A stretch of 64,000 nucleotides of DNA from IMG/VR virus record IMGVR_UViG_3300023311_001083, positions 11,886 to 75,885 of that record; one strand, 5' to 3'. This document shows positions 2,466 to 31,607 of this stretch, piece after piece (positions within the stretch are counted from its first letter, which is position 1; each line of letters opens with the position of its first letter). The notes under the pieces are model-generated. The model was not told the DNA's origin. It worked only from the letters and a program-made list of their open reading frames with translations, and did not search any database. The DNA is from a virus. Taxonomy: Duplodnaviria > Caudoviricetes. The position numbers were made by a program, and so were the translations under genes.

Positions 2466-3557
2466 TTAAAACTCAAACAAACTTTCAAACATGTTAGTTC
2501 GTTCAGTACTTCTTAAATCCCAATGTAATACGCCAATTAAATTCTCCAGTTTCTTATTAATAATAATTGTTTCCATAGCGTCATGATCAAATGGTAATTC
2601 CTTAAACCATTGCGGTAATCTTAATTCATCAACAGGATATGCAACTGATGTTATACCTAATGGATTGTTTTTAAGCTTACAAACAATAACTTTCATACCA
2701 TCTACTATACTCATAGAGTATTTGTCACTATTCATACGTTGTAACGTATTCCAATTGATACTCGCTCTAACATGACCTGGTAATCTAGCTTTACCTTCGT
2801 CGTTTTCTTTAGCTTGATAGTACGTGATTTTATTTGCTCGTTTGGGAGAACCTTTCTCCCAACCTGGACGTTCTTTGAAAATAATCCTAAAATTAACTAT
2901 ATGTTCCAAAACTTTTTCTTGTGTAGCATCAGTTAGCACCATTTCAAGTAATTCACTTAGAAATTTCTGAATAAAAACAGGTGTATCACTACGTCTGAGA
3001 TCGAGACCCATTGCTTTTATCTTTCCTTCTTTACCTTTGATGTCTTGACGTTTTCCATCTTTATCATAAACTAAAACTGCATACCGCTTCTTAGTTATGA
3101 ATAATCCAGTAGTACCAACAATTTCTCTTCCAGCTTTTATAACTTCACCACGTGATTTTGGACAATGAAATGCATCATACATAAATTGCGGGAATGTTTC
3201 ATTAACCATATCTGCCATTTCATCATATAATTCAATGATTGAATCTTTATTCCAGTCAATCCGCTTAGCATCAATATCTTTTTTAAATGTTTCATATGCT
3301 GAGAAATATACTGAATTATGCAATAGAATATTATTACCAAACAACCAAGGCTTCTTTTCGTTTTTCATTCCAATATCATATACATACTCGTTGTTAGCTT
3401 GTCTTACCTTTTTAACTGATTTAACTGGTGCACGATGCAGTGAGATCGTTGTTGGTTTTATTTTTGAAATATTTTTTCGAATATCAGATAATACCTGAAC
3501 TTGTTCTTCAGTATTTGTTGAATGAATTAATGTTTTAAATAATGTAGTTAAAGTCAT
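2466..3557 (-). CDS. polB: Family-B DNA polymerase C-terminal fragment with N-terminal split intein IntC
   Basis: YVYDI...GNNILLHN|SVYFS junction, then KKRYA and KAMGLDLRRSD PolB motifs; ATGA overlap with upstream ORF. Confidence 0.9.
   Translation of the reverse strand: MTLTTLFKTLIHSTNTEEQVQVLSDIRKNISKIKPTTISLHRAPVKSVKKVRQANNEYVYDIGMKNEKKPWLFGNNILLHNSVYFSAYETFKKDIDAKRIDWNKDSIIELYDEMADMVNETFPQFMYDAFHCPKSRGEVIKAGREIVGTTGLFITKKRYAVLVYDKDGKRQDIKGKEGKIKAMGLDLRRSDTPVFIQKFLSELLEMVLTDATQEKVLEHIVNFRIIFKERPGWEKGSPKRANKITYYQAKENDEGKARLPGHVRASINWNTLQRMNSDKYSMSIVDGMKVIVCKLKNNPLGITSVAYPVDELRLPQWFKELPFDHDAMETIIINKKLENLIGVLHWDLRSTERTNMFESLFEF
3315..3557 (-). other. Split intein C-part (81 aa)
   Basis: Block F YVYDI, block G ILLHN, +1 residue Ser at 3312-3314. 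Confidence 0.9.
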
Positions 3558-5296
3558 GGTGTTGTTTTCTCGTTATTGGTTAATTGCATTTCAAAAACTA
3601 TTTGTCCACAATCCCAAATTCTTCGATATTTGTTAAAATACATATTCTCTATTTCAGTAAGATTGTGGTTGTAATTTATTAATAAGTTAGCAAGGTTTCT
3701 TTTTTGAAAAAAAGAACGATGCCAGATCTTCTTACAATCAGTATAATAATAACACGGATCAGTAACATGTGTCAATGTAAAATTACATTGTTTATATACA
3801 TTTCCGTTGCTCCATCTGCGATTTGCATATGAAATCAACATTCCGGTATGTGTTTTTTTAAATTCATTAATAATTTTACTAAATCCACCAATCACTGACG
3901 TGTTTATTACTGATGCAAAACGTATTAATTCGAAATAGTTATCAACTTTTTTTCTAAATCTAGATTTTCCAAATGTTGCAAGTGATACAATTTCTTGGTT
4001 ATAAACTAAACCGATATGAATTGATCCAGATGCATACCCTTGTAAGTGATTTTGTTCAAAGAATGCTTTACTGTCTTTACCAGATAATAAAATAATTTTA
4101 CAATGTCTAGCAAATATTCTACGAGATGCTTTTTTTAAATGATGTCGTATTGTAGATTTCCATATTTCTTGTTTTATAACGTCTTTCCATTCTAAATCTA
4201 GAATATGTAATAATTGTATTCCGTTTTCTTCGCATACAGTTGTTTTATTTAGGTGTTGTTTTGATTTAGCAAAATCAGTTTCTTTTGAAGCTGACGAATG
4301 CCAATAAATGCCGTTATATTCTATTGCTAAATTAAACTTTGGTAAATATATATCAATTTCAAACCCTAAATCTCTCCACGAATGATTTATTTCATCAACA
4401 CCAATTTCTGTTAAAAAATTAATAATTTCATATTCCGCAGCTGATTTATTTGTAGTAAATTGGATCCCACATTGTTTACATCCATTACCTGCTAAATGAT
4501 AATATGCAACTTGTGAGAATTTTCCGTGTTTTTGACATATAATATCAACGATCTCACGAGCCGAGTTGTATATAGTTTGACTATAATCATATTTTAACCC
4601 GTGAATGTTTTGTGCTTTTAAAATGAATTCAGGGGTTGTTAACAGTATTTTTTTGGCATTTTGATCAAGACCACATTTCTTACATCCATGCCCACGCATG
4701 TGTACGCCTGCTACTTGTAAAAAAGACCCATGTATTGGACACACAATTTCTATTGAACTATTAATATCAATAAACTTGCGTTTGTCATATATATAGAAAT
4801 TATTGTGTTCTTTCATGCTTCTAGCAATCCAGTCTTCAACAGTAATACGTGGAATAATTGTATCACCATAACATTTTTGACACCGCATGCCTTTGATAAA
4901 ATTTCTTGCTATTTGAAAAAATACTCCGTGTTTTTGGCAGTTTAATTCAATATACTGTATACTGCTTAGAAATTTTGGAACATTTATTAATTCATAATTA
5001 TGAATGTTATGTTTTTTTAATGTTTCTAAAGAAATAATATTATTTGTATTAACGTGTAGGTTACACCGATATTTTGCATTTTCAAAATTTCTAAATTTTG
5101 AAATTATTGTTAATTGGGCATTACATATTTCACAAACTGGACTATCTTGGTTGTCTAAAAATAAGCATATGGCGGCCTGTACATCAAATATGTTTTGCCG
5201 ACCGCCATATTTTACGAGTATCTTATTAAATAATCTTGGATATTTTTTTTTAAACGAGGATACCGTTAAACCTCGAGTTATAAGCGAATTTGTCAT
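3554..5296 (-). mobile_element. Free-standing homing endonuclease-like gene between the intein halves (Zn-binding repeats plus PD-(D/E)XK/Vsr-like domain)
   Basis: Three C-x2-HG-x-F-x-Q...H-x2-G-x2-C-x2-C repeats; EIDIYLPKFNLAIEYNGIYWH; TATAAATA at 5301-5308. Confidence 0.75.
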
Positions 5297-5308
5297 ATTA
5301 TATTTATA

Positions 5309-5665
5309 TTAATCTTTTTGACTAATTGAAATTAATATATCTGTTTCTTGAATATCAGCCGGCTTTACTTCTAGCAGGATTCCGGCTCGTTCAATCATTA
5401 CTGAGTGGTCTTGAGTTACTGTTACAATATTACCTAACGCATCTTCGATTTCGTACAAATCTTTAGAAACTTTATGCCGATAGATATAATTAATGTGCCC
5501 TAAGTATGGCTCGTTCCTATCTGGGTCAAAACTCATAACGATTAACTCTGGATTATATGCATACTCTTTATCCCCGTCATTCCAAAATTGCGAGCACGAA
5601 CTGAATAACTCTTCAACTGTTTTCTCACCAAAATTAGTTTGATGCAATGTTGTGCCTATCCAACT
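5309..5665 (-). other. Split intein N-part (118 aa, Ser1)
   Basis: Starts SWIGTT directly after YGDTD; block B TVTQDHS; ends at stop. Confidence 0.88.
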
Positions 5666-7291
5666 ATCAGTATCACCATATATAAGACTAGCGCCAAGAT
5701 GGTCATATTTACCAGTGATAAATTCATTAGTTTTAGCACTCATGTGCTTAACAATTTGTCTGCCAGTTAATGTTGTTGATTGTCCAATTCGTTTATCTGA
5801 GAAACGGCATCCTTCATTTAATAACGCGCCATATAATGCATTTAAATTAATTTTCTTAACTAATTGTCGTTTGTCCCAGTATTCTTCAGCAATTTTATCA
5901 TTTTCATCTTTTGCTATTGCTAATTTTGCCTGCAATTCTTGACGTTCTGCATACCATCGTTTTAATAATCCAGGAATGATACCTTCTTTTTCATAAGTAA
6001 AAATAGTACCATTTGCACTTAGCATCCAAGGTTGATTGCTTTTGAATATTAATTTATAAACTTCGGCAGCACTTAATATGTCACTTTCACCATTAACCCA
6101 ATCAATTGTTATTTCAGTTCCTAATTCTTGATTCATAACTGACGTATATTCTAAACTTCCGAATATTCCTTCCCATGCTTGTGCTGCAGTTTTACCTTTT
6201 TTACCAGAAACTGATTTAGCCATCAGTTTAGCAATGTGCGCCTCAGTTGCTGTCTGTCTTAACTGACCTACAATTGTTTCAGGGCTCATATTTACTGCGC
6301 GAATAGCACTGGGATATAGTGAGTTTATATCGAAAGAACCTATCCACCGATGAAAACCTTTCTTAGGATATGCTACATATGCACCAGCGGCACCTGATTC
6401 AGATTTAGTTAATTTTGATCTATTCGGAACTTGTAATCCCCTACTATGCGCTTCATTGATGATAGCTTGTTCAGTCATTGCAACTGTGCCTAAAGTTGTG
6501 GGCAATAGAACTGTGTTTTCATGTGCTAGTAAATTAGTTTGATATATGAATTTTAATTTAGCATCCAATTTAGCTAGGAGGTCTGTATCCTGTCTATTAT
6601 ATTGAATAAATGTTTTAAAATCATTATTATATAATTGATCTAAGGTGCCATCATACTCTGTTTTCTTTTCACCAAGTTCATACTCTGCAATTGCATCTAA
6701 CGAATAACTATGACGTTCTTCATAAGTATACTTTTTATATAAATCTAGACTATCAATATTTACTCGTCCAATAAAATCATATGTAATTGATGTTTTTCCA
6801 TATTTTTCATATTCACGTTTTTTTGGTAGCTGATCAAATAAACAAAATCGTCTAGTATCATTTTTACTTAGAACTTTAGCAACTCTATGCACGGTATATG
6901 GGACATCATACGCTTGACAATTCCACCCTGATAATACGTCCGCATCTTGAATTAAATCCAAGAATGTATCCAATAATTCTTTTTCAGTTTTGAAAAGCAA
7001 TGTATTAGGAAATTCTTTGACTTCTTCAATTGCCTGGTCCATTGTCAAAGATTTTGGTGGCACTGATAAACATATAGTTGTGTTTAACCATTGCAGATGA
7101 ACTGCTATTGCAGTAATTGGCATGAATGCGTCATCAGTTGAACTATAACCAGGACCAGGTTTTAAGTATCTGCAACCATCAATGTTAACCCACTGTTTTT
7201 TAATAGAATCCCATACTTCATATTCATGTTTATTAGGTAGTTGGTTTAATTCAAAGACCGTTATTTCTTTTTCTTCCTGCACTTTTATCAT
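5309..7291 (-). CDS. polB: Family-B DNA polymerase middle fragment (ExoII/III, Pol A/B/C) with C-terminal split intein IntN
   Basis: SGWNCQAYD, YNRQDTD, SFDINSLYPS, KKINLNALYG, YGDTD followed by intein sequence; exact start uncertain. Confidence 0.92.
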   Translation of the reverse strand: MIKVQEEKEITVFELNQLPNKHEYEVWDSIKKQWVNIDGCRYLKPGPGYSSTDDAFMPITAIAVHLQWLNTTICLSVPPKSLTMDQAIEEVKEFPNTLLFKTEKELLDTFLDLIQDADVLSGWNCQAYDVPYTVHRVAKVLSKNDTRRFCLFDQLPKKREYEKYGKTSITYDFIGRVNIDSLDLYKKYTYEERHSYSLDAIAEYELGEKKTEYDGTLDQLYNNDFKTFIQYNRQDTDLLAKLDAKLKFIYQTNLLAHENTVLLPTTLGTVAMTEQAIINEAHSRGLQVPNRSKLTKSESGAAGAYVAYPKKGFHRWIGSFDINSLYPSAIRAVNMSPETIVGQLRQTATEAHIAKLMAKSVSGKKGKTAAQAWEGIFGSLEYTSVMNQELGTEITIDWVNGESDILSAAEVYKLIFKSNQPWMLSANGTIFTYEKEGIIPGLLKRWYAERQELQAKLAIAKDENDKIAEEYWDKRQLVKKINLNALYGALLNEGCRFSDKRIGQSTTLTGRQIVKHMSAKTNEFITGKYDHLGASLIYGDTDSWIGTTLHQTNFGEKTVEELFSSCSQFWNDGDKEYAYNPELIVMSFDPDRNEPYLGHINYIYRHKVSKDLYEIEDALGNIVTVTQDHSVMIERAGILLEVKPADIQETDILISISQKD

Positions 7292-7985
7292 TCCCAGTAT
7301 ATTTTGTTACATATTTGACAACTGACCCATCATTTAATTGCCCATTGCATTTTTTTATTTTATATTTTATATGGTCGTATGTATACCCTGTTATGAACAT
7401 TACTTGTTCATATGACCAAAATTTAATAATTGACCCATCCATTTTTGTTAGTTGCATTTGTGAGCCTTTTCCTTTTCTTATCATGTTACCACGTGTTTTT
7501 TGATCACACTGTCCAACTGACGCTTTCATTCGAACATGCATTTCTTCTTTAGATAGTTTGCTCAACGTATTTTTTAATGTATTACTCACTTTATTATAAT
7601 CATACTGATATTTTCCTAATTTATGATTTTCACTAAATCGGCGTTTTCTTTCTTCACATTTGTTTGGATTCTCATCAATATATCTTTTCCTTGCTTCAGC
7701 ATACGCATGACTAGTTACTACGTAACTATTATATCCGGATCGTGTTTTTGCCATCCACCATAATGCATATATCATTTTCTTTCTAAATGTCGGGTTATTT
7801 TTATACATTTTTACTAATAAAAGATGGCAAATAAAATGTTCACGAGTAGTTAAGTATACGAGGTTAAATTCATCATTTGTACCACCACAACTTTTTGGAA
7901 GAATATGGTGTTTTTCTAATCCAATATCTTTTGTTTTAAATTTAGAATTTTCAATTATACTAAAATATATTTTTTCATAGTTCAT
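7251..7985 (-). mobile_element. Free-standing HNH homing endonuclease gene interrupting the polB exonuclease domain
   Basis: EKHHILPKSCGGTNDEFNLVYLTTREHFICH HNH motif; TAAATA upstream; overlaps the middle polB ORF by 41 nt. Confidence 0.85.
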
Positions 7986-8031
7986 AAGTTTCTCTTATAA
8001 CTATTTAACTTGAGCTCCTCCATACCAATAA

Positions 8032-8424
8032 TTATTTTAGTTTTTTTCTAATTTTTACTATTTGTTGGCTTGGAACAGCAAATGGTTGCATATCAACTTC
8101 AATGTCCCAGAAAGCGACATTTAAATTTGGTGATTCTTGATGCATATAGTGTTCAGCTAATGCAACAAATACTGGATTGGTATCAGATTCAAATAATACT
8201 TTACCGCTATTAATTGCTTGTTCTTTTCTAAAATCATTTGTAGATTTACATACAATACGATTTAGTTTATCCCCATAAATACTTTCATATTTACCTTTTG
8301 TATCTTTGTAATAAAAAGTATACTTAACTGGTATATTTCGAAATATACGTTCACCAGATTTAGATCGTTCTACTATTTTAATTTGATCTGCGTTTCTATC
8401 AAAGAAACCATCCACATATGACAT
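8032..8424 (-). CDS. polB: Family-B DNA polymerase N-terminal fragment (contains ExoI)
   Basis: Ends AFWDIEVD (ExoI DxE) plus a 19-aa tail; GGAG RBS. Confidence 0.85.
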   Translation of the reverse strand: MSYVDGFFDRNADQIKIVERSKSGERIFRNIPVKYTFYYKDTKGKYESIYGDKLNRIVCKSTNDFRKEQAINSGKVLFESDTNPVFVALAEHYMHQESPNLNVAFWDIEVDMQPFAVPSQQIVKIRKKLK

Positions 8425-8477
8425 TTAATCTCCTTGTTATTGTGACTGCTAAATTAATAGCAGCCACTATCTTTCTT

Positions 8478-8735
8478 TTAGATTTTTTTAGTTATATCTA
8501 AAATAGCTTCAACTTCTTCCCAATCTTCATTGTAATCTTGCCAGTTTCCTTTATGTGCAATTTTTATTGCTTTATTAATAACACTAGGTTTTACACTTAG
8601 TTCTTCTGCAACCGCTTTCACAGTTTCTTTAAGTCCTTCTTGTAAAGCTTCAATTTCATGTAATACTGTACTTCCTTCATTAATTAGCCGTTCTAATTTT
8701 GATTTTTCTTCTGGGCCGTAGCTTCTATCTGCCAT
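8478..8735 (-). CDS. Small dsDNA-binding protein (T4 DsbA/GapR-like)
   Basis: EIEALQEGLKETVKAVAEEL...INKAIK helical pattern; GGAG RBS before MADRSY. Confidence 0.55.
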   Translation of the reverse strand: MADRSYGPEEKSKLERLINEGSTVLHEIEALQEGLKETVKAVAEELSVKPSVINKAIKIAHKGNWQDYNEDWEEVEAILDITKKI

Positions 8736-8763
8736 TTTGTTCTCCGTGGTTATTAAAATAAAC

Positions 8764-8792
8764 ATTATACATTAAATAGTTATGTATGTCAA
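8764..8792 (-). promoter_or_regulatory. Consensus sigma70-type early promoter for the dsb/polB operon
   Basis: TTGACA-17 nt-TATAAT. Confidence 0.8.
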
Positions 8793-8801
8793 TTATAAGA
8801 C

Positions 8802-8829
8802 AAAAAAAAGGCAGATATAAATCTGCCTT
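8802..8829 (-). terminator. Rho-independent terminator
   Basis: AAGGCAGAT/ATCTGCCTT stem plus U-tract on minus strand. Confidence 0.8.
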
Positions 8830-11033: not shown

Positions 11034-12655
11034 TATTTTAAACCACTCAGCATTTTGATTGCATCTAATTCAACAGATTCATTTAAATCTCTTTCATATC
11101 TATCATCTCTTGCTGCATCTCTACGAAAGACTGCTTCTGCATCAGCTTGATTTTCTAAGCTATCTGTAGTTTCATGTTCATCAGCATCGTATTCTGCTTC
11201 AAAATTAGCTATTTTAACTATTTGGTCAATTACGTAATGTGGTAAAATATCACTAAATTCATCTGATAATTTATCAACAAGCCTGCCTATTTCGTGTTCT
11301 TGTACTGGTAATTCAACACCTAAATCTTTTATTGCGCTTACAACATCGTCATACCATGATTCTTTAACAGCTGAATTATGTTCTTCAGGATCAGTTTCCC
11401 ACTCAGAAATATTTTCTGATTGTTCTTTAAAGAATTTAACTTTTTTAGCCCAATTTTTAGCAGCTATTTTATCACCTTTTTCTTTACCTTCTTTAGAAAC
11501 TTGTTTAAAAGGTTTGCTTTTTCGGTTCAATGATTCTTCTAAGTTATCAACTGCTTTTTCTATACCTTTTTTACGTTTTTGAATTTTGCTATTTAATTCA
11601 CCAAATTTATCTATCGAACCAGGCACATCTGCCATTTTTCCCAATCGATATGCTTTATTATCAATATCTCTTGTTGCACGTTTAGTATAAGATTTCAACG
11701 TATCTTTTGATAGCCCAGTTTCAGCTATTTCGCGTTCTTTCTTTTTATTAATTATTGTATGTGGAAAACTTTTTGAAGAATGGTCGATTAACGATCCTCT
11801 TGGGATTGTTTCACCTTCTTCGTGTTCATCAGAATGTGGTGTGAACCAATGTTTTTTACCATCCCATCTTCCTAAAACATTACCTTTTCTATCTATTACG
11901 TTTGTAGCTTCATCAATACCCATATCCATACCAACTTCGTGTTTAGCATGAGCAATAGCTTCTTTTTTATCGTCAAAACGTGATACATTTTTTGGTCCTA
12001 AATGTTTACCATCTTTGTAGATGTGTACTGTAAAGCCATTACCAGGCCCTTCAGCGCGAACTTCTGCAGTACCACCAGAATTATCATCAAACGATGCAAT
12101 TTTTCTAGAACCTTTTGTAAGGGTTGATTCACCTAAGTCATAATTAGTTTTTTTGTGTTTTTCGTCACCGCGTTTAGCTGCTTGTTTTTTATCTTTATGA
12201 GCACCTGCACCAGCTGTTGGGGCATTTTTAGCAACAAAATTATTAATTTTAGGAGCATCGTCTGATTTATTTTTTTTAGCTTCTGTAATTTTTAATTCTT
12301 TAATTTTAGCTTTTGCTTCCATTAATTTATTTTTTAACGCTGCTTTTTGACTCTCGGAGTAAATGTCACTATTTTCTAAATGATCACCATATTCACTGAA
12401 TTTTTTCTCATATTCAATGTAATGATATACTGATGCAATATAATCAGCAGCTTTAGTAATTTTGGCTTGTACCCAAGATTCTAATTGGTCATTATCTTCT
12501 AATTTTTTAAATAATTTAAAACTATAAGTAGCTAATTTGTATAAATCAGCTTTTGCCATTGCACCCTCATTATCATCTTCTGTATGACCTAAGCCGATAA
12601 CATTATCTTCTTCTTGCGGTGCTAAAATAGCGAATTCATTTAATTTACGTTCCAT
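11033..12655 (-). CDS. Mosaic probable internal head protein
   Basis: Modules separated by [LIV]-x-E sites; C-terminal ESVELDAIKMLSGLK; TAAATA at 12678-12683. Confidence 0.55.
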   Translation of the reverse strand: MERKLNEFAILAPQEEDNVIGLGHTEDDNEGAMAKADLYKLATYSFKLFKKLEDNDQLESWVQAKITKAADYIASVYHYIEYEKKFSEYGDHLENSDIYSESQKAALKNKLMEAKAKIKELKITEAKKNKSDDAPKINNFVAKNAPTAGAGAHKDKKQAAKRGDEKHKKTNYDLGESTLTKGSRKIASFDDNSGGTAEVRAEGPGNGFTVHIYKDGKHLGPKNVSRFDDKKEAIAHAKHEVGMDMGIDEATNVIDRKGNVLGRWDGKKHWFTPHSDEHEEGETIPRGSLIDHSSKSFPHTIINKKKEREIAETGLSKDTLKSYTKRATRDIDNKAYRLGKMADVPGSIDKFGELNSKIQKRKKGIEKAVDNLEESLNRKSKPFKQVSKEGKEKGDKIAAKNWAKKVKFFKEQSENISEWETDPEEHNSAVKESWYDDVVSAIKDLGVELPVQEHEIGRLVDKLSDEFSDILPHYVIDQIVKIANFEAEYDADEHETTDSLENQADAEAVFRRDAARDDRYERDLNESVELDAIKMLSGLK

Positions 12656-14937: not shown

Positions 14938-17205
14938 TTATATTTCAACTGTGTCAGCTATTTTAAATTTCTTTGCAACTGGTTGTAATTGCAATTTATC
15001 ATTTTTAACGGTAATGGATAATACTCCACCAGATTGCAAGTCACCAAATAACATTAATTTAGCAAGATCACGTTTAATTTCTTTATCAATAATTCTGTTC
15101 AAAGGTCTTGCACCCATTTTGCTATCAAATCCATTAGTAATTAACCAATTTATAGCATCTTTATTAATTTTAATACGAATAGATTTTTGTTTAACTTGAT
15201 TACGCAATTCATCAATAAATTTATTAACTACGTTCACCATATCATCTTTACTTAATTTATTAAACGTAATAATACCATCAAGTCTATTACGGAATTCAGG
15301 TGTAAAGAATTTTTTCAATTCAGCATCATCATAAATTTTTTCTTGATTTCCAAACCCAATTTGATTTTTCTCAGCACTTGCAGCACCGGCATTAGTAGTT
15401 AAAATTAATACAATATTTCTGCAATCTGCCTGTTTACCATTACTACCAGTAATAAAACCATTATCCATTAGTTGTAATAAAACTGTTAACACGTCTGGAT
15501 GTGATTTTTCAACTTCATCAAATAATAAAACTGCATTTGGATTTTCTTGAATCTGTGTTATTAGTTGACCAGCGTTATCATCAAAACCAACGTAACCTGG
15601 CGGGCTACCAATTAATTTACTGATACTGTGTTTCTCTTGATATTCACTCATATCAAATCTTAACAATTTAACACCAAGATGTTTAGCTAATGAAATTGCT
15701 GTTGCTGTTTTACCACATCCACTATGACCCATAAACACAAAACTACCAATTGGTTTATTTTCATTTTTTAATCCAGCATGTGCAACCACAATCTTATCAA
15801 CAATCTCAGTGATTGCACCATTTTGACCATAAACTTCTGCTTCAATATTACTTTGTAAAGTGGATAGATTAGAACTTTCAGTTTCCATTATTTTTTCTAA
15901 TGGCATATTAATCATTTTAGCTAATTCAAATTGAATTTCAGTATCTGTAATAGTTCTATTTTTAGTTTTAACTAAATTAAGTCTAGAACATGCACAATCA
16001 AGTAAATCAATTGCTTTATCTGGTAATTTTTTATCTGCTTGATATTTCACACTTAGCTCAATTGCAGAATTTAGCGCAGTATCTTTAATTTTTACATCAT
16101 GGTGTGATTCATAATATTTTTTAATACCTTTTAATATTTTAAATGCCATATCAGGTGTGGGTTCGTCAACCACGATACGTTGAAACCGTCTTACTAATGC
16201 ACGATCTTTTTCAAAATGTTTGCGATATTCTTCCCAAGTAGTAGAAGCAATTACTTTTACATCACCTTTACTTAATGCAGGTTTCATCATATTAGCTAAA
16301 TCATTAGCAGAGTTGTTTCCAGATCCAGCACCATTAATCATGTGTGCTTCATCTATAAATAAAACACATTTACCGTTATCCTGTAATGCAGAAAGAACTA
16401 ATTTAAATCGTTCTTCAAAATCACCACGATATTTACTGCCTGCAAGCATTCCACTAATATCAAGATCGTAGATAGTATAATCTTTTAAAAATTCTGGAAC
16501 ATTACCATTAACAATATTATATGCCAATCCTTCAGCTATTGCAGATTTACCAACCCCAGGGTCGCCAACTAGAATAACGTTATTTTTACTACGTCTTCCT
16601 AAAGACAATGCAATATTTTCTAGCTCCGTGGCACGCCCAATCACTGGATCGATTTTTTTATCTAAAACTTTTTTATTTAAATTAGTAGTAAATGATTGAA
16701 GTGCTTTTGCACTTCTACTATTATCATCAGATGGTTTTAGTTCGTCACTATCTGTTGTTTCTTCAGTGTGTTGTATATAATCAATGTATTTTTCTTTACT
16801 GATTTCTGCATTACTAATGTAATAAAACGCCCAACTGCGTTTTTCACCCATAATTGCAACAAATATATCAGATGGTTCAATTGCTGGTCTACCGCTGAAT
16901 AAAACTTGCGTAAATGCTCTATTTAAGATTCTATCAACTGCTTGTGTTTTTTTAGGTTTAACACCGTCTTCATCAGTTATAATACTTTCGCATTTATTAT
17001 TTAAGAATTCATAAACTTGGTTTTTAAGTTTTTTAGAATTTGCACCAATTTCATCTAAACCTTTATTAAATTCTTTTTCCATAAGTAACGCATATAGAAT
17101 ATGTTCAATTGTTACATACTCATGTTTTAATGCTATCGCAGCCGCAGATGCATTTTCAAAAACGTTATGTAAATTTTCACTTGGCTCAACCATTTTATTA
17201 TCCAT
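14938..17205 (-). CDS. clpA: ATP-dependent Clp protease ATPase subunit ClpA
   Basis: Clp N-domain (HEYVTIEH), Walker A GDPGVGKS and GHSGCGKT, FIDEAH, FDEVEK, ClpP-docking IGF loop, no ClpB M-domain. Confidence 0.92.
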   Translation of the reverse strand: MDNKMVEPSENLHNVFENASAAAIALKHEYVTIEHILYALLMEKEFNKGLDEIGANSKKLKNQVYEFLNNKCESIITDEDGVKPKKTQAVDRILNRAFTQVLFSGRPAIEPSDIFVAIMGEKRSWAFYYISNAEISKEKYIDYIQHTEETTDSDELKPSDDNSRSAKALQSFTTNLNKKVLDKKIDPVIGRATELENIALSLGRRSKNNVILVGDPGVGKSAIAEGLAYNIVNGNVPEFLKDYTIYDLDISGMLAGSKYRGDFEERFKLVLSALQDNGKCVLFIDEAHMINGAGSGNNSANDLANMMKPALSKGDVKVIASTTWEEYRKHFEKDRALVRRFQRIVVDEPTPDMAFKILKGIKKYYESHHDVKIKDTALNSAIELSVKYQADKKLPDKAIDLLDCACSRLNLVKTKNRTITDTEIQFELAKMINMPLEKIMETESSNLSTLQSNIEAEVYGQNGAITEIVDKIVVAHAGLKNENKPIGSFVFMGHSGCGKTATAISLAKHLGVKLLRFDMSEYQEKHSISKLIGSPPGYVGFDDNAGQLITQIQENPNAVLLFDEVEKSHPDVLTVLLQLMDNGFITGSNGKQADCRNIVLILTTNAGAASAEKNQIGFGNQEKIYDDAELKKFFTPEFRNRLDGIITFNKLSKDDMVNVVNKFIDELRNQVKQKSIRIKINKDAINWLITNGFDSKMGARPLNRIIDKEIKRDLAKLMLFGDLQSGGVLSITVKNDKLQLQPVAKKFKIADTVEI

Positions 17206-30227: not shown

Positions 30228-31607
30228 TTATAGTTTTTCACCAGGTTCAAATCCTCGAAATCTGCGAAATCTAGGGAATCGTAAACTAAATGTTCCATCT
30301 CGATTTTGTGATATTGAATCAGCACGTATCTCAATGATTCTACCAATTAGATCAGACCCGTCTGGATACTCAGTTTCGGTAATAAGTTCTTTATTTTTCA
30401 CATGTGTCCATTGCACTGGTTTTTTTGTATAATTTGCCCAAATTTGTGCTCGTAATTTAAGGGAATAACCACCACCAACATTTACTGTTATTTGTTTTTC
30501 ATCATCAATACCAGAACATGTTAATGCACCTAGCGTTCCAATTAAATCTTTTTCACCTTCTTCTACTCCAGTAATATCCAATGAAACCTCGATGAATGGT
30601 TTTAATTTCATCCAAGAATATGAACGCTTCAATTCATACAATGCATATGGATCTTTAATCATTATGCCTTCAAATCCACCATCTATTGCAGATTTATTTA
30701 TTTCTTTAAATCTGCAATTACCTTCTAGTGTGTCTAAATCAACCAATTCTTGACCAATCACATCGATGCTTTTAAATGAATGTTGTGATACCCAATCACG
30801 AAGATACATTGACCGTTCACTCTGATTTAAGGTTGATGATCCATTTTCAAATTCAGATAATGGTAATATATCAAATAATTGAAGTTTTGCATCACTAGTT
30901 TCAACGTCGTCTTTTCGATACAACTGTTTCATCAAATCTTGAAACGATGAACTAACAACTTCTCCATCAAATACCATAGGTTCCGATAACGTGTTAGAAA
31001 CAATAGAGAATTCATTTTTTATGTGAGGGTAATTTATTATTTCCTTTCCGTTACGACTGAATTGATCAACCCTTCCAGTTGGATACACAATAGAAATTAA
31101 CCGAACTCCATCTAATTTAACATCAATTAATTTCTTTCCAACTAAACGATGTTCTTCACCAACAATATCTTTGGCTAATTGGACTGTAAACACTGGGACG
31201 GAATATTGTGGACAAAGTTTTTTTACAGCATTATTAACCGTTTTTTCACTTACACCACAACGTAAATCTTTTATTAGTATCCTTCTATACCAATTGTTCC
31301 ATTCAGCGCGAGTAGCTGTTTTTAGACACAATTCAATGGCATTTCTAGCATCGTTTCCAGTTAGTTCACGGTTTTGCAATTGTTCAACCAGTTTGAAAAA
31401 AACTGCTGAGGGCAATCCTTGACCATCTGGACCACCGTGAACTGGGACTTGTTTAACCCCGAATGAAATTAACGAATCTAATGCTAGTTTAACACCTTGA
31501 AAGAAATCATCATTTTTTGATCCAGCTTCTTGCTTTATCAATGTCTCTTTGGCTATTCTACTATTGTCAGATTCTAACGCTGTTATTACATCCCATGGTT
31601 TTCTCAT
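30228..31607 (-). CDS. lig: ATP-dependent DNA ligase
   Basis: VKLDGVR, VFDGE, FEGIMIK, WMKLKP, LRFPRF. Confidence 0.92.
   Translation of the reverse strand: MRKPWDVITALESDNSRIAKETLIKQEAGSKNDDFFQGVKLALDSLISFGVKQVPVHGGPDGQGLPSAVFFKLVEQLQNRELTGNDARNAIELCLKTATRAEWNNWYRRILIKDLRCGVSEKTVNNAVKKLCPQYSVPVFTVQLAKDIVGEEHRLVGKKLIDVKLDGVRLISIVYPTGRVDQFSRNGKEIINYPHIKNEFSIVSNTLSEPMVFDGEVVSSSFQDLMKQLYRKDDVETSDAKLQLFDILPLSEFENGSSTLNQSERSMYLRDWVSQHSFKSIDVIGQELVDLDTLEGNCRFKEINKSAIDGGFEGIMIKDPYALYELKRSYSWMKLKPFIEVSLDITGVEEGEKDLIGTLGALTCSGIDDEKQITVNVGGGYSLKLRAQIWANYTKKPVQWTHVKNKELITETEYPDGSDLIGRIIEIRADSISQNRDGTFSLRFPRFRRFRGFEPGEKL

Follow-up and report, generated by a model that had tools for sequence, protein, structure and literature searches.

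The 64,000-nucleotide stretch analysed here (the window), positions 11,886 to 75,885 of the 75.9-kb IMG/VR virus record IMGVR_UViG_3300023311_001083 (Duplodnaviria; Caudoviricetes), carries a DNA polymerase gene (polB) that is distributed over three reading frames, and this analysis concerns the first of its two breaks, which falls in the exonuclease domain next to the ExoI motif. The genes concerned all lie on the minus strand, in the order promoter, 95-residue open reading frame (ORF), polB piece A, HNH gene, polB piece B, Hef-like gene and polB piece C. Piece A (8032..8424, 130 residues) comprises, in the ORF listing, the N-terminal domain, ExoI (FWDIEVD, residues 105-111) and a 16-residue tail, its C-terminus reading ...LNVAFWDIEVDMQPFAVPSQQIVKIRKKLK before the stop codon (also written ...FWDIEVDMQPFAVPSQQIVKIRKKLK); it matches the PHROG DNA polymerase family phrog_262 (E 4e-12) and is 34-39% identical to the N-termini of unsplit jumbo-phage PolBs. 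The gene that follows it (7251..7985, 244 residues) encodes a free-standing HNH homing endonuclease, assigned to phrog_655 with an E value of 5.7e-35, its match to the Pfam HNH family (E 0.004, 17.7 bits) lying under the curated 21.4-bit cut-off. Piece B (5309..7291, 660 residues), which begins MIKVQEEKEITVFELNQLPNKHEYEVWDSIKKQWVNIDGCRYLKPGPGYSSTDDAFMPIT (also written MIKVQEEKEITVFELNQLPNKHEYEVWDSIKKQWVNIDGCRYLKPGPGYSS...), contains a 45-residue head, ExoII, ExoIII and motifs A, B and C as far as YGDTD, then the N-terminal half of an intein, with Pfam matches to DNA_pol_B (4.9e-28), DNA_pol_B_exo1 (4.6e-13) and Intein_splicing (1.3e-4). The start of B lies 740 nt beyond the stop codon of A, and the HNH ORF overlaps the start of B by 41 nt; a first-pass annotation of the window had described ExoI at the end of a 130-residue ORF with ExoII and ExoIII in the next, 740 nt away across an HNH gene, and this is exactly what the sequence contains. 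The product is a family B DNA polymerase of the RB69/T4 gp43-like type, in which ExoI-III and motifs A-C occur in order (Pfam) and for which the model of an unsplit relative matches the gp43 fold. Its nearest relatives are the polymerases of the Pseudomonas jumbo phages PA5oct and MIJ3 (46-47% identity) and those of other jumbo myoviruses, and near-identical DNA is present in pond and freshwater metagenomes of several studies.

The boundaries of the extra sequence at the break were placed from alignments that set A and B beside the unsplit polymerases of PA5oct and Phosso and beside 69 IMG/VR relatives, non-redundant and without the insert. These 69 metagenomic relatives read DIE[VT]DFDPERG[YF] at the site, and A1-114 (...DIEVDMQP) joined to B46-660 (GPGY...) is identical in length to the DIEVDFDPERGY... 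of unsplit insert-less forms; the extras are therefore A115-130, i.e. the 16-residue tail FAVPSQQIVKIRKKLK (8035..8082), and B1-45, the head (7157..7291), which bears out the earlier claim that both pieces carry additional sequence. The tail, of the form FAVSSQxMVKIRKKxK, hardly varies among 23 A-type proteins, the bodies of which share 51-71% identity with that of the window, and A-type proteins of 129-130 residues are frequent in metagenomes (long Logan/ENA contigs). Over all pairs of loci the codon differences in the tail amount to 137 synonymous against 88 non-synonymous, and because its codon changes are mostly synonymous the tail is taken to be conserved for its peptide sequence, and not for a role as RNA or as a DNA target. 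Conservation of the head extends to all B-type proteins. The ExoI residues D107, I108, E109 and D111 are invariant in the 23 A-type proteins, and 18 B-type sequences agree at every catalytic ExoII and ExoIII position. To judge from the comparisons of tail and head, neither extra is a chance open frame. Two other descriptions of them were tried. The possibility that the head is a duplicated PolB N-terminus arose from a MAFFT alignment that put the head on the N-terminal strands, and was dropped as an alignment artefact after unsplit inserts had been found; by BLASTP the head gave no alignment to A or to Phosso, and in PA5oct only a 13-residue match (E 0.04). The possibility that the extras are an ordinary loop of all homologues was rejected, as PA5oct, Phosso and the 69 metagenomic relatives are without the insert; judged from the alignment, that description holds for the insert-bearing clade only.

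Tail and head together correspond to one continuous insert of 53-61 residues, which at least 12 relatives with an unsplit gene carry at this very site (L037, L098/L102/L108, L106, L109, L111, L112, P0096/97, P0100, P0103, P0107-9 and the more distant P0110 and P0124). The insert lies right after ExoI, between D-x-x-P and G-x-G-Y, and in L037, a 948-residue ORF on a 141-kb contig, the region reads DMQP-FAVSGQHLVKIRKIKTVVDEKEITVFKLNELPNKEEYQVWDDIKKEWVDIYGCRYLEA-GPGY. In an alignment of the inserts the tail occupies columns 5-20 and the head columns 18-65 of the insert of the unsplit relatives, and the break falls in the sole part that is variable in length and sequence, between VKIRK and EKEITVF, so that the HNH gene of the window is situated within the loop-coding part of the insert. 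Compared with L037, the gene of the window has an extra KLK and a stop codon on one side of the break and a Met on the other, and nothing more. A profile search of 1.84 billion representatives with the insert returned 16 matches, namely PolB fragments together with a few repeat proteins whose multiple short matches were judged spurious; neither an intein nor any other host protein was among them. The first-pass annotation had proposed that tail and head form a dedicated reassembly module, and had itself set against that proposal the finding of an unsplit insert in homologues; this proposal is not supported, since the relatives carry the same mini-domain in one piece and the two extras were accordingly not built as a clasp.

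The structure of the mini-domain was predicted with AlphaFold2 from residues 1-430 of the unsplit L037 protein and a 64-row alignment. The model has a mean predicted local distance difference test score (pLDDT) of 86.4 and, outside the insert, matches RB69 gp43 (Foldseek E 4e-23, query TM-score (TMq) 0.71); the insert blocks score 79-92, with the four full ten-residue blocks (121-160) at 87-92. The insert consists, in order, of a strand LVKIRK (residues 122-127), a six-residue loop, a strand EKEIT, a short helix and strands YQVWD and EWVD, and the same elements are obtained when the insert is folded alone as a 67-residue segment (pLDDT 77.5). Because the tail supplies the LVKIRK strand, with the beginning of the loop, and the head the remaining strands and the short helix, the split enzyme would draw strand 1 of the mini-domain from A and its other elements from B. 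Prediction of a complex between A (130 residues) and B1-50 gave a score of 0.32, the best of 3 controls giving 0.00. Of 80 solved complexes, 58 attain the mark applied to this score, as do 2 of 110 mismatched pairs; those that attain it with a score of at most 0.60 are only 7 of the 80 solved complexes, but both of the mismatches. Across the runs at least 82% of contacts agree, and the pLDDT of the partner is at least 63. It is thus very likely, as far as the models go, that tail and head are brought together in the assembled enzyme, and an effect of the two as a clasp is structurally plausible. The earlier suggestion that the extras zip the two chains together non-covalently is in this respect partly upheld, drawing strength from the single folded mini-domain of the unsplit relatives, whilst the complex prediction speaks for it weakly.

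A homologous HNH ORF of 242-253 residues is found in the insert loop in the window and in all 15 other split loci inspected, among them L084, L086, L100, L101, L103, L104, L105, L114 and L124-L126 (contexts from IMG/VR), and the gap, where measured, is nearly constant at 755-767 nt. The HNH proteins of these loci are down to 42% identical, and their DNA has diverged to the same extent as that of the flanking polB (0.64-0.76 identity; eight loci compared). HNH relatives in other contexts (L127-L129) have no flanking intein halves. In the more distant split lineage of L124 and L125, whose HNH proteins are 42-44% identical, the B cistron starts with GTG right after two stop codons past the HNH ORF (L124:3220-3330, L125:3225-3335). 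Head-less forms of B in these two loci proved to be apparent only: the head looks lost because ORF calling from ATG alone shortens B, and with the GTG start it is retained. In the window, a predicted RNA hairpin (7977..8004, minus strand) has its 3' arm over the start codon of the HNH gene, the region fold of 7970-8075 having a minimum free energy of -16.1 kcal/mol (z -2.9 against shuffles). Such a hairpin could damp translation of the endonuclease, and is reminiscent of those by which T4-type phages restrict the translation of mobE and I-TevI.

The history of the arrangement was examined on a tree built from 300 host-gene residues that lie downstream of the insert. On this tree the three kinds of allele (insert-less, insert-unsplit and split) are interspersed, and the starred branches require the insert-less state to have changed at least 4 times. 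In approximately unbiased (AU) tests a single clade for the split forms was rejected (p 0.010), but a single clade for all insert-bearing forms was not (p 0.133), a pair of results that fits repeated gain or loss of the endonuclease inside one insert-bearing clade. The simplest reading of these sequences would be a single old gain of the mini-domain, repeated gain or loss of the endonuclease at its loop, and long retention of the intact endonuclease. Homing endonuclease genes usually go through such a cycle. These results also bear on whether the unsplit homologues lack any endonuclease history, a point on which the first-pass annotation had made its proposal depend: unsplit homologues do exist, but their lineages may have possessed the endonuclease gene and lost it, since the AU test rejects one origin of the split forms. 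A contig from one pond metagenome (run X13) matches polB as far as the insert boundary (window position 7135) and then continues with the insert-less FDPERGYASP, which places insert-bearing and insert-less relatives in the same water.

Several alternatives to a break without splicing were considered, of which a self-splicing intron is the most familiar. On that explanation the HNH gene belongs to a group I intron or to a self-splicing intron of another kind, the extras are in-frame intron sequence and the mature mRNA encodes an unsplit PolB. Phage DNA polymerase genes are cited in a review of mobile elements (PMC2988022) as hosts of group I introns with HNH genes, and an upstream ORF running to the first stop codon is what an intron would be expected to produce. 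The sequence offers little for such an element: only 46 nt separate the stop codon of A from the HNH start and 0 nt remain 3' of the HNH ORF owing to its 41-nt overlap with B, so that outside coding sequence there is no room for a ribozyme core, as the first-pass annotation had noted. An Rfam scan of both strands of 6900-8500 at E<=10 found no intron family, its chance matches being to a snoRNA (E 0.016, wrong strand) and twister-P3 (E 5.1). Tail and head are, moreover, part of the protein in the unsplit relatives and under selection at the peptide level, and extras that were removed would not persist in relatives as a confidently folded domain. An intron at this site is on these grounds highly improbable. 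Protein splicing fares similarly in the sequence. Every insert sequence examined has Phe or Tyr at position 1, where an intein would have a Cys, Ser or Thr nucleophile; tail and head have no TxxH (block B); and the insert ends ...RYL(K/E/Q)(P/G/A) followed by Gly, with no terminal HN and no +1 nucleophile. The corresponding observation in the first-pass annotation, i.e. that the extras are without Cys/Ser1, TxxH and HN, is correct, and the unsplit relatives encode the insert without splicing residues, their model showing it folded into the exonuclease domain as an integral part. In four DNA runs the contigs contained no joint across the HNH gene. Contigs from other, independent pond samples bridged both the A-HNH and the HNH-B junction, and included no endonuclease-free form at near identity. 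The number of RNA runs among the listed public runs matching the phage sequence was 0. By these searches, no intron or intein is detectable at the ExoI break.

A different possibility is that tail, HNH gene and head move as one cassette, the endonuclease cutting insert-less polB and repair copying the halves of the mini-domain along with it, as a corollary of which the mini-domain would act as a tolerated wrapper that belongs to the endonuclease gene itself, and introns and inteins would be joined by a third strategy. The intermixing of the three forms with its forced changes of state, the flank of the insert-bearing forms (DMQ[PA]...G[PG]GY throughout, against DFDPERGY in insert-less forms) and the insert-less allele in a pond metagenome that also holds the phage are all compatible with this; yet one ancient gain of the insert suffices to explain the tree (AU p 0.133), many lineages, as well as PolBs that are far more remote (P0124, P0116, P0125), carry the insert with no HNH gene, and HNH DNA as diverged as its flanks shows neither a recent sweep nor co-conversion tracts, which leaves the cassette unlikely. 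More deserving of attention, although doubtful in its turn, is descent of the insert from an intein at the ExoI site, which would have decayed to approximately the N-terminal (perhaps also the C-terminal) strands of a Hint domain and, no longer splicing, would still join the chains. In its most specific version, which we also regard as possible rather than probable, the insert is a catalytically dead atypically split intein, which many freshwater jumbo phages would have retained as a module for association without splicing, the endonuclease still occupying the former split point. The HNH gene lies where atypically split inteins break, leaving an N-fragment of 15-16 residues, and the tail of 16 residues compares with one of 15 in PolB16 (PMC10189870). 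In PolB16 OarG, VidaL and AceL-TerL (PMC10189870), which together with other inteins are also the nearest, weak, structural neighbours of the insert, an upstream end of 15-16 residues pairs with a downstream start much as tail and head would here, and the PolB16 intein is likewise in a PolB gene, albeit at YGDTD/S (N-extein SGDTD) and not, as here, at ExoI. The comparison with Hint folds that the first-pass annotation had proposed did place PolB16 OarG at the top of the PDB matches to the insert-only model (8cpn; Foldseek E 0.41, probability 0.72, TMq 0.49, 64 columns, 22% identity), below significance, with six more inteins within the top 43. In an exhaustive VIA-align search 13 of the 50 matches listed were inteins, mostly aligned from intein residue 1 and at 20-24% identity for phage-type inteins, and the best matches in BFVD were frequent intein hosts (ribonucleotide reductase, topoisomerase II, TerL and Megavirus PolB; E >= 0.06). 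The N-terminal half of the insert also resembles the first 40 residues of the PA5oct N-intein (z 4.2), and its C-terminal half blocks F-G of the C-intein of the window (z 2.4), these being weak hints, 2 of 12 shuffle tests. Against this descent, the structural matches are all non-significant, and BRK, GYF, KOW and GINS domains score equally. The sequence tests agree in being negative: a Pfam scan of 17 insert sequences gave no Hint or intein match at E<=10; PDB profile searches found, of the inteins, VidaL only (E 0.56), and nothing with a trimmed profile, the best matches being CLASP2, EVH1 and Kelch hairpin motifs that were judged spurious; hhalign against the family's own N-intein gave a probability of 0.8%; a six-frame search of the genome with PF14890 recovered the downstream intein only; and an ESM Atlas search with the insert gave no usable match. 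Unlike atypically split inteins, the insert retains no catalytic residue (no Ser/Cys1, block B, terminal Asn or +1 nucleophile, with Phe or Tyr at position 1 and Gly after the insert), is 53-61 residues long, less than half of a minimal Hint domain, and stays in the protein of the unsplit relatives; nor was a full intein at the ExoI site found in any relative. The earlier description of the extras as Hint-like is thus weakly suggested: inteins are the nearest folds, at sub-significant scores, while these sequence searches were negative.

We favour, with a probability of about 0.8, the reading that polB has been broken without splicing by a free-standing HNH gene inserted in the loop of the mini-domain, and that the two chains reassemble. 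It takes as its basis the observed gene anatomy, the unsplit and insert-less relatives, the constancy of the insertion site, and the conservation of the catalytic residues and the tail. On this reading the phage belongs to a PolB clade related to PA5oct and MIJ3 in which the exonuclease domain would have had an extra mini-domain of 53-61 residues before the break. The HNH gene, presumably by homing of its enzyme, would have inserted in the DNA for the variable loop between strands 1 and 2, bringing the stop codon with which the upstream part now ends; the part beyond it starts with ATG (GTG in some lineages). Piece A, with the N-terminus and ExoI, and piece B would then be translated separately, with neither RNA nor protein splicing, and could reassemble both by the ordinary packing of N-terminal and exonuclease domains and through a re-formed mini-domain in which the tail of A provides strand 1 and the head of B the other strands. 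Tail and head would in this way be the halves of a pre-existing domain, whose loop happened to tolerate the landing. Some points weigh against this reading. That A assembles with B, that the exonuclease is active and that no processing takes place are points that we infer; direct pairing of the tail strand with the head strands is deduced from the order of secondary structure and the six-residue loop, not from contacts; and the complex prediction is a weak pass. The direction of events is also unproven, in that loss of the endonuclease followed by re-fusion could in principle have given rise to the unsplit insert-bearing forms secondarily, and the tree is poorly resolved, with an uncertain root.

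Genes split by an endonuclease that nonetheless work as two polypeptides are known from nrdA with mobE in Aeh1, genes 39 and 60 with mobA in T4, and 43A/43B in the Aeromonas phages 25 and 44RR (PMC2988022); the two PolB pieces of phage 25, as that review recounts, co-purify and polymerise. The precedent of Aeh1 nrdA/mobE, put forward in the first-pass annotation for assembly without splicing, is accordingly well documented and extends to a phage PolB. To judge from its sequence, the ExoI break belongs to the same kind of endonuclease-fractured, splicing-free gene: the cistrons are collinear with the endonuclease between them, unsplit endonuclease-free alleles exist, and selection acts on both pieces, whose catalytic residues are intact. 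As in those phages, a free-standing endonuclease resides inside an essential gene of replication or nucleotide metabolism and leaves two collinear cistrons, the products of which have to associate non-covalently. In contrast to them, the break separates ExoI from ExoII within the exonuclease domain, which leaves the proofreading active site shared by two chains; it uses the loop of a clade-specific mini-domain that also exists unsplit; it has persisted in freshwater jumbo phages, many of them, uncultured and diverged, in which the HNH gene has changed in step with polB; and it stands beside a split intein in the same gene, which is consequently in three pieces. The site, the use of such a loop, the breadth and age of the arrangement, and its association with the split intein are new.

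The second break is separate from the finding at ExoI. It lies at motif C, where the sequence reads YGDTD/S...HN/SVYF and the intein blocks A, N2, B, N4, F and G can be recognised. The N-terminal half of the split intein (5312..5665, minus strand; 118 residues, Ser1, SWIGTT...VTQDHSVMI...) ends piece B, and between the intein halves lies a second free-standing endonuclease gene (3554..5296, minus strand; 580 residues), matching phrog_559 (E 2.3e-113) and phrog_3339 (E 4.9e-102), whose equivalent in PA5oct is annotated as Hef-like. Piece C (2466..3557, minus strand; 363 residues; Pfam DNA_pol_B 4.4e-6) begins with C-intein residues 1-81 (3315-3557, ending ...GNNILLHN) and continues with SVYF... 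and the thumb. The same split intein and endonuclease have been published for phage MIJ3 (PMC6892783) and are annotated in PA5oct; they recall the 'fractured genes' of Dassa et al. 2009, as cited in PMC6892783. That element splices, and does so at motif C, whereas the PA5oct polymerase has neither the insert nor the ExoI break. In the phage of the window the polymerase would, on the sequence evidence, be made from three genes by two different routes, and the gene that contains the ExoI break depends on trans-splicing at the polymerase active site as well.

Other features of the region were noted in passing. Upstream of polB the stretch 8478-8829 (minus strand) holds a terminator-like hairpin (8808-8829), then a candidate sigma-70-like promoter (8764-8792; TTGACA-17-TATAAT, 12 of 12 positions), both from a consensus scan only and the latter 5' of the 95-residue ORF and polB A; the conserved 95-residue ORF is directly upstream of polB A, and an equivalent ORF is found 5' of polB in the distant relatives L114 and L124-L126. 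Elsewhere in the window, a 755-residue ATP-dependent protease (14938-17205, minus strand; phrog_4871, E 2.5e-243) may be the counterpart of the FtsH-like protein reported as unusual in phage MIJ3, and an ATP-dependent DNA ligase (30228-31607, minus strand; phrog_114, E 1.9e-81) is ordinary content of a jumbo-phage replication module.

The arrangement amounts to a two-chain proofreading domain, with ExoI on one polypeptide and ExoII and ExoIII on the other, that has been kept over a long divergence. It offers a natural system in which to ask how endonuclease-fractured enzymes reassemble, a question left explicitly open in the 2010 review of the mobile elements of T4-type phages (PMC2988022). 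Were the mini-domain indeed an intein remnant, a homing endonuclease gene would be residing, with splicing of neither RNA nor protein, within the domain that forms the proofreading active site of an essential polymerase; the remnant would represent a new fate for an intein, and might provide a short, cysteine-free tag for non-covalent association. Whatever its ancestry, the mini-domain indicates that surface loops of small accessory domains can serve as safe landing sites for homing endonucleases.

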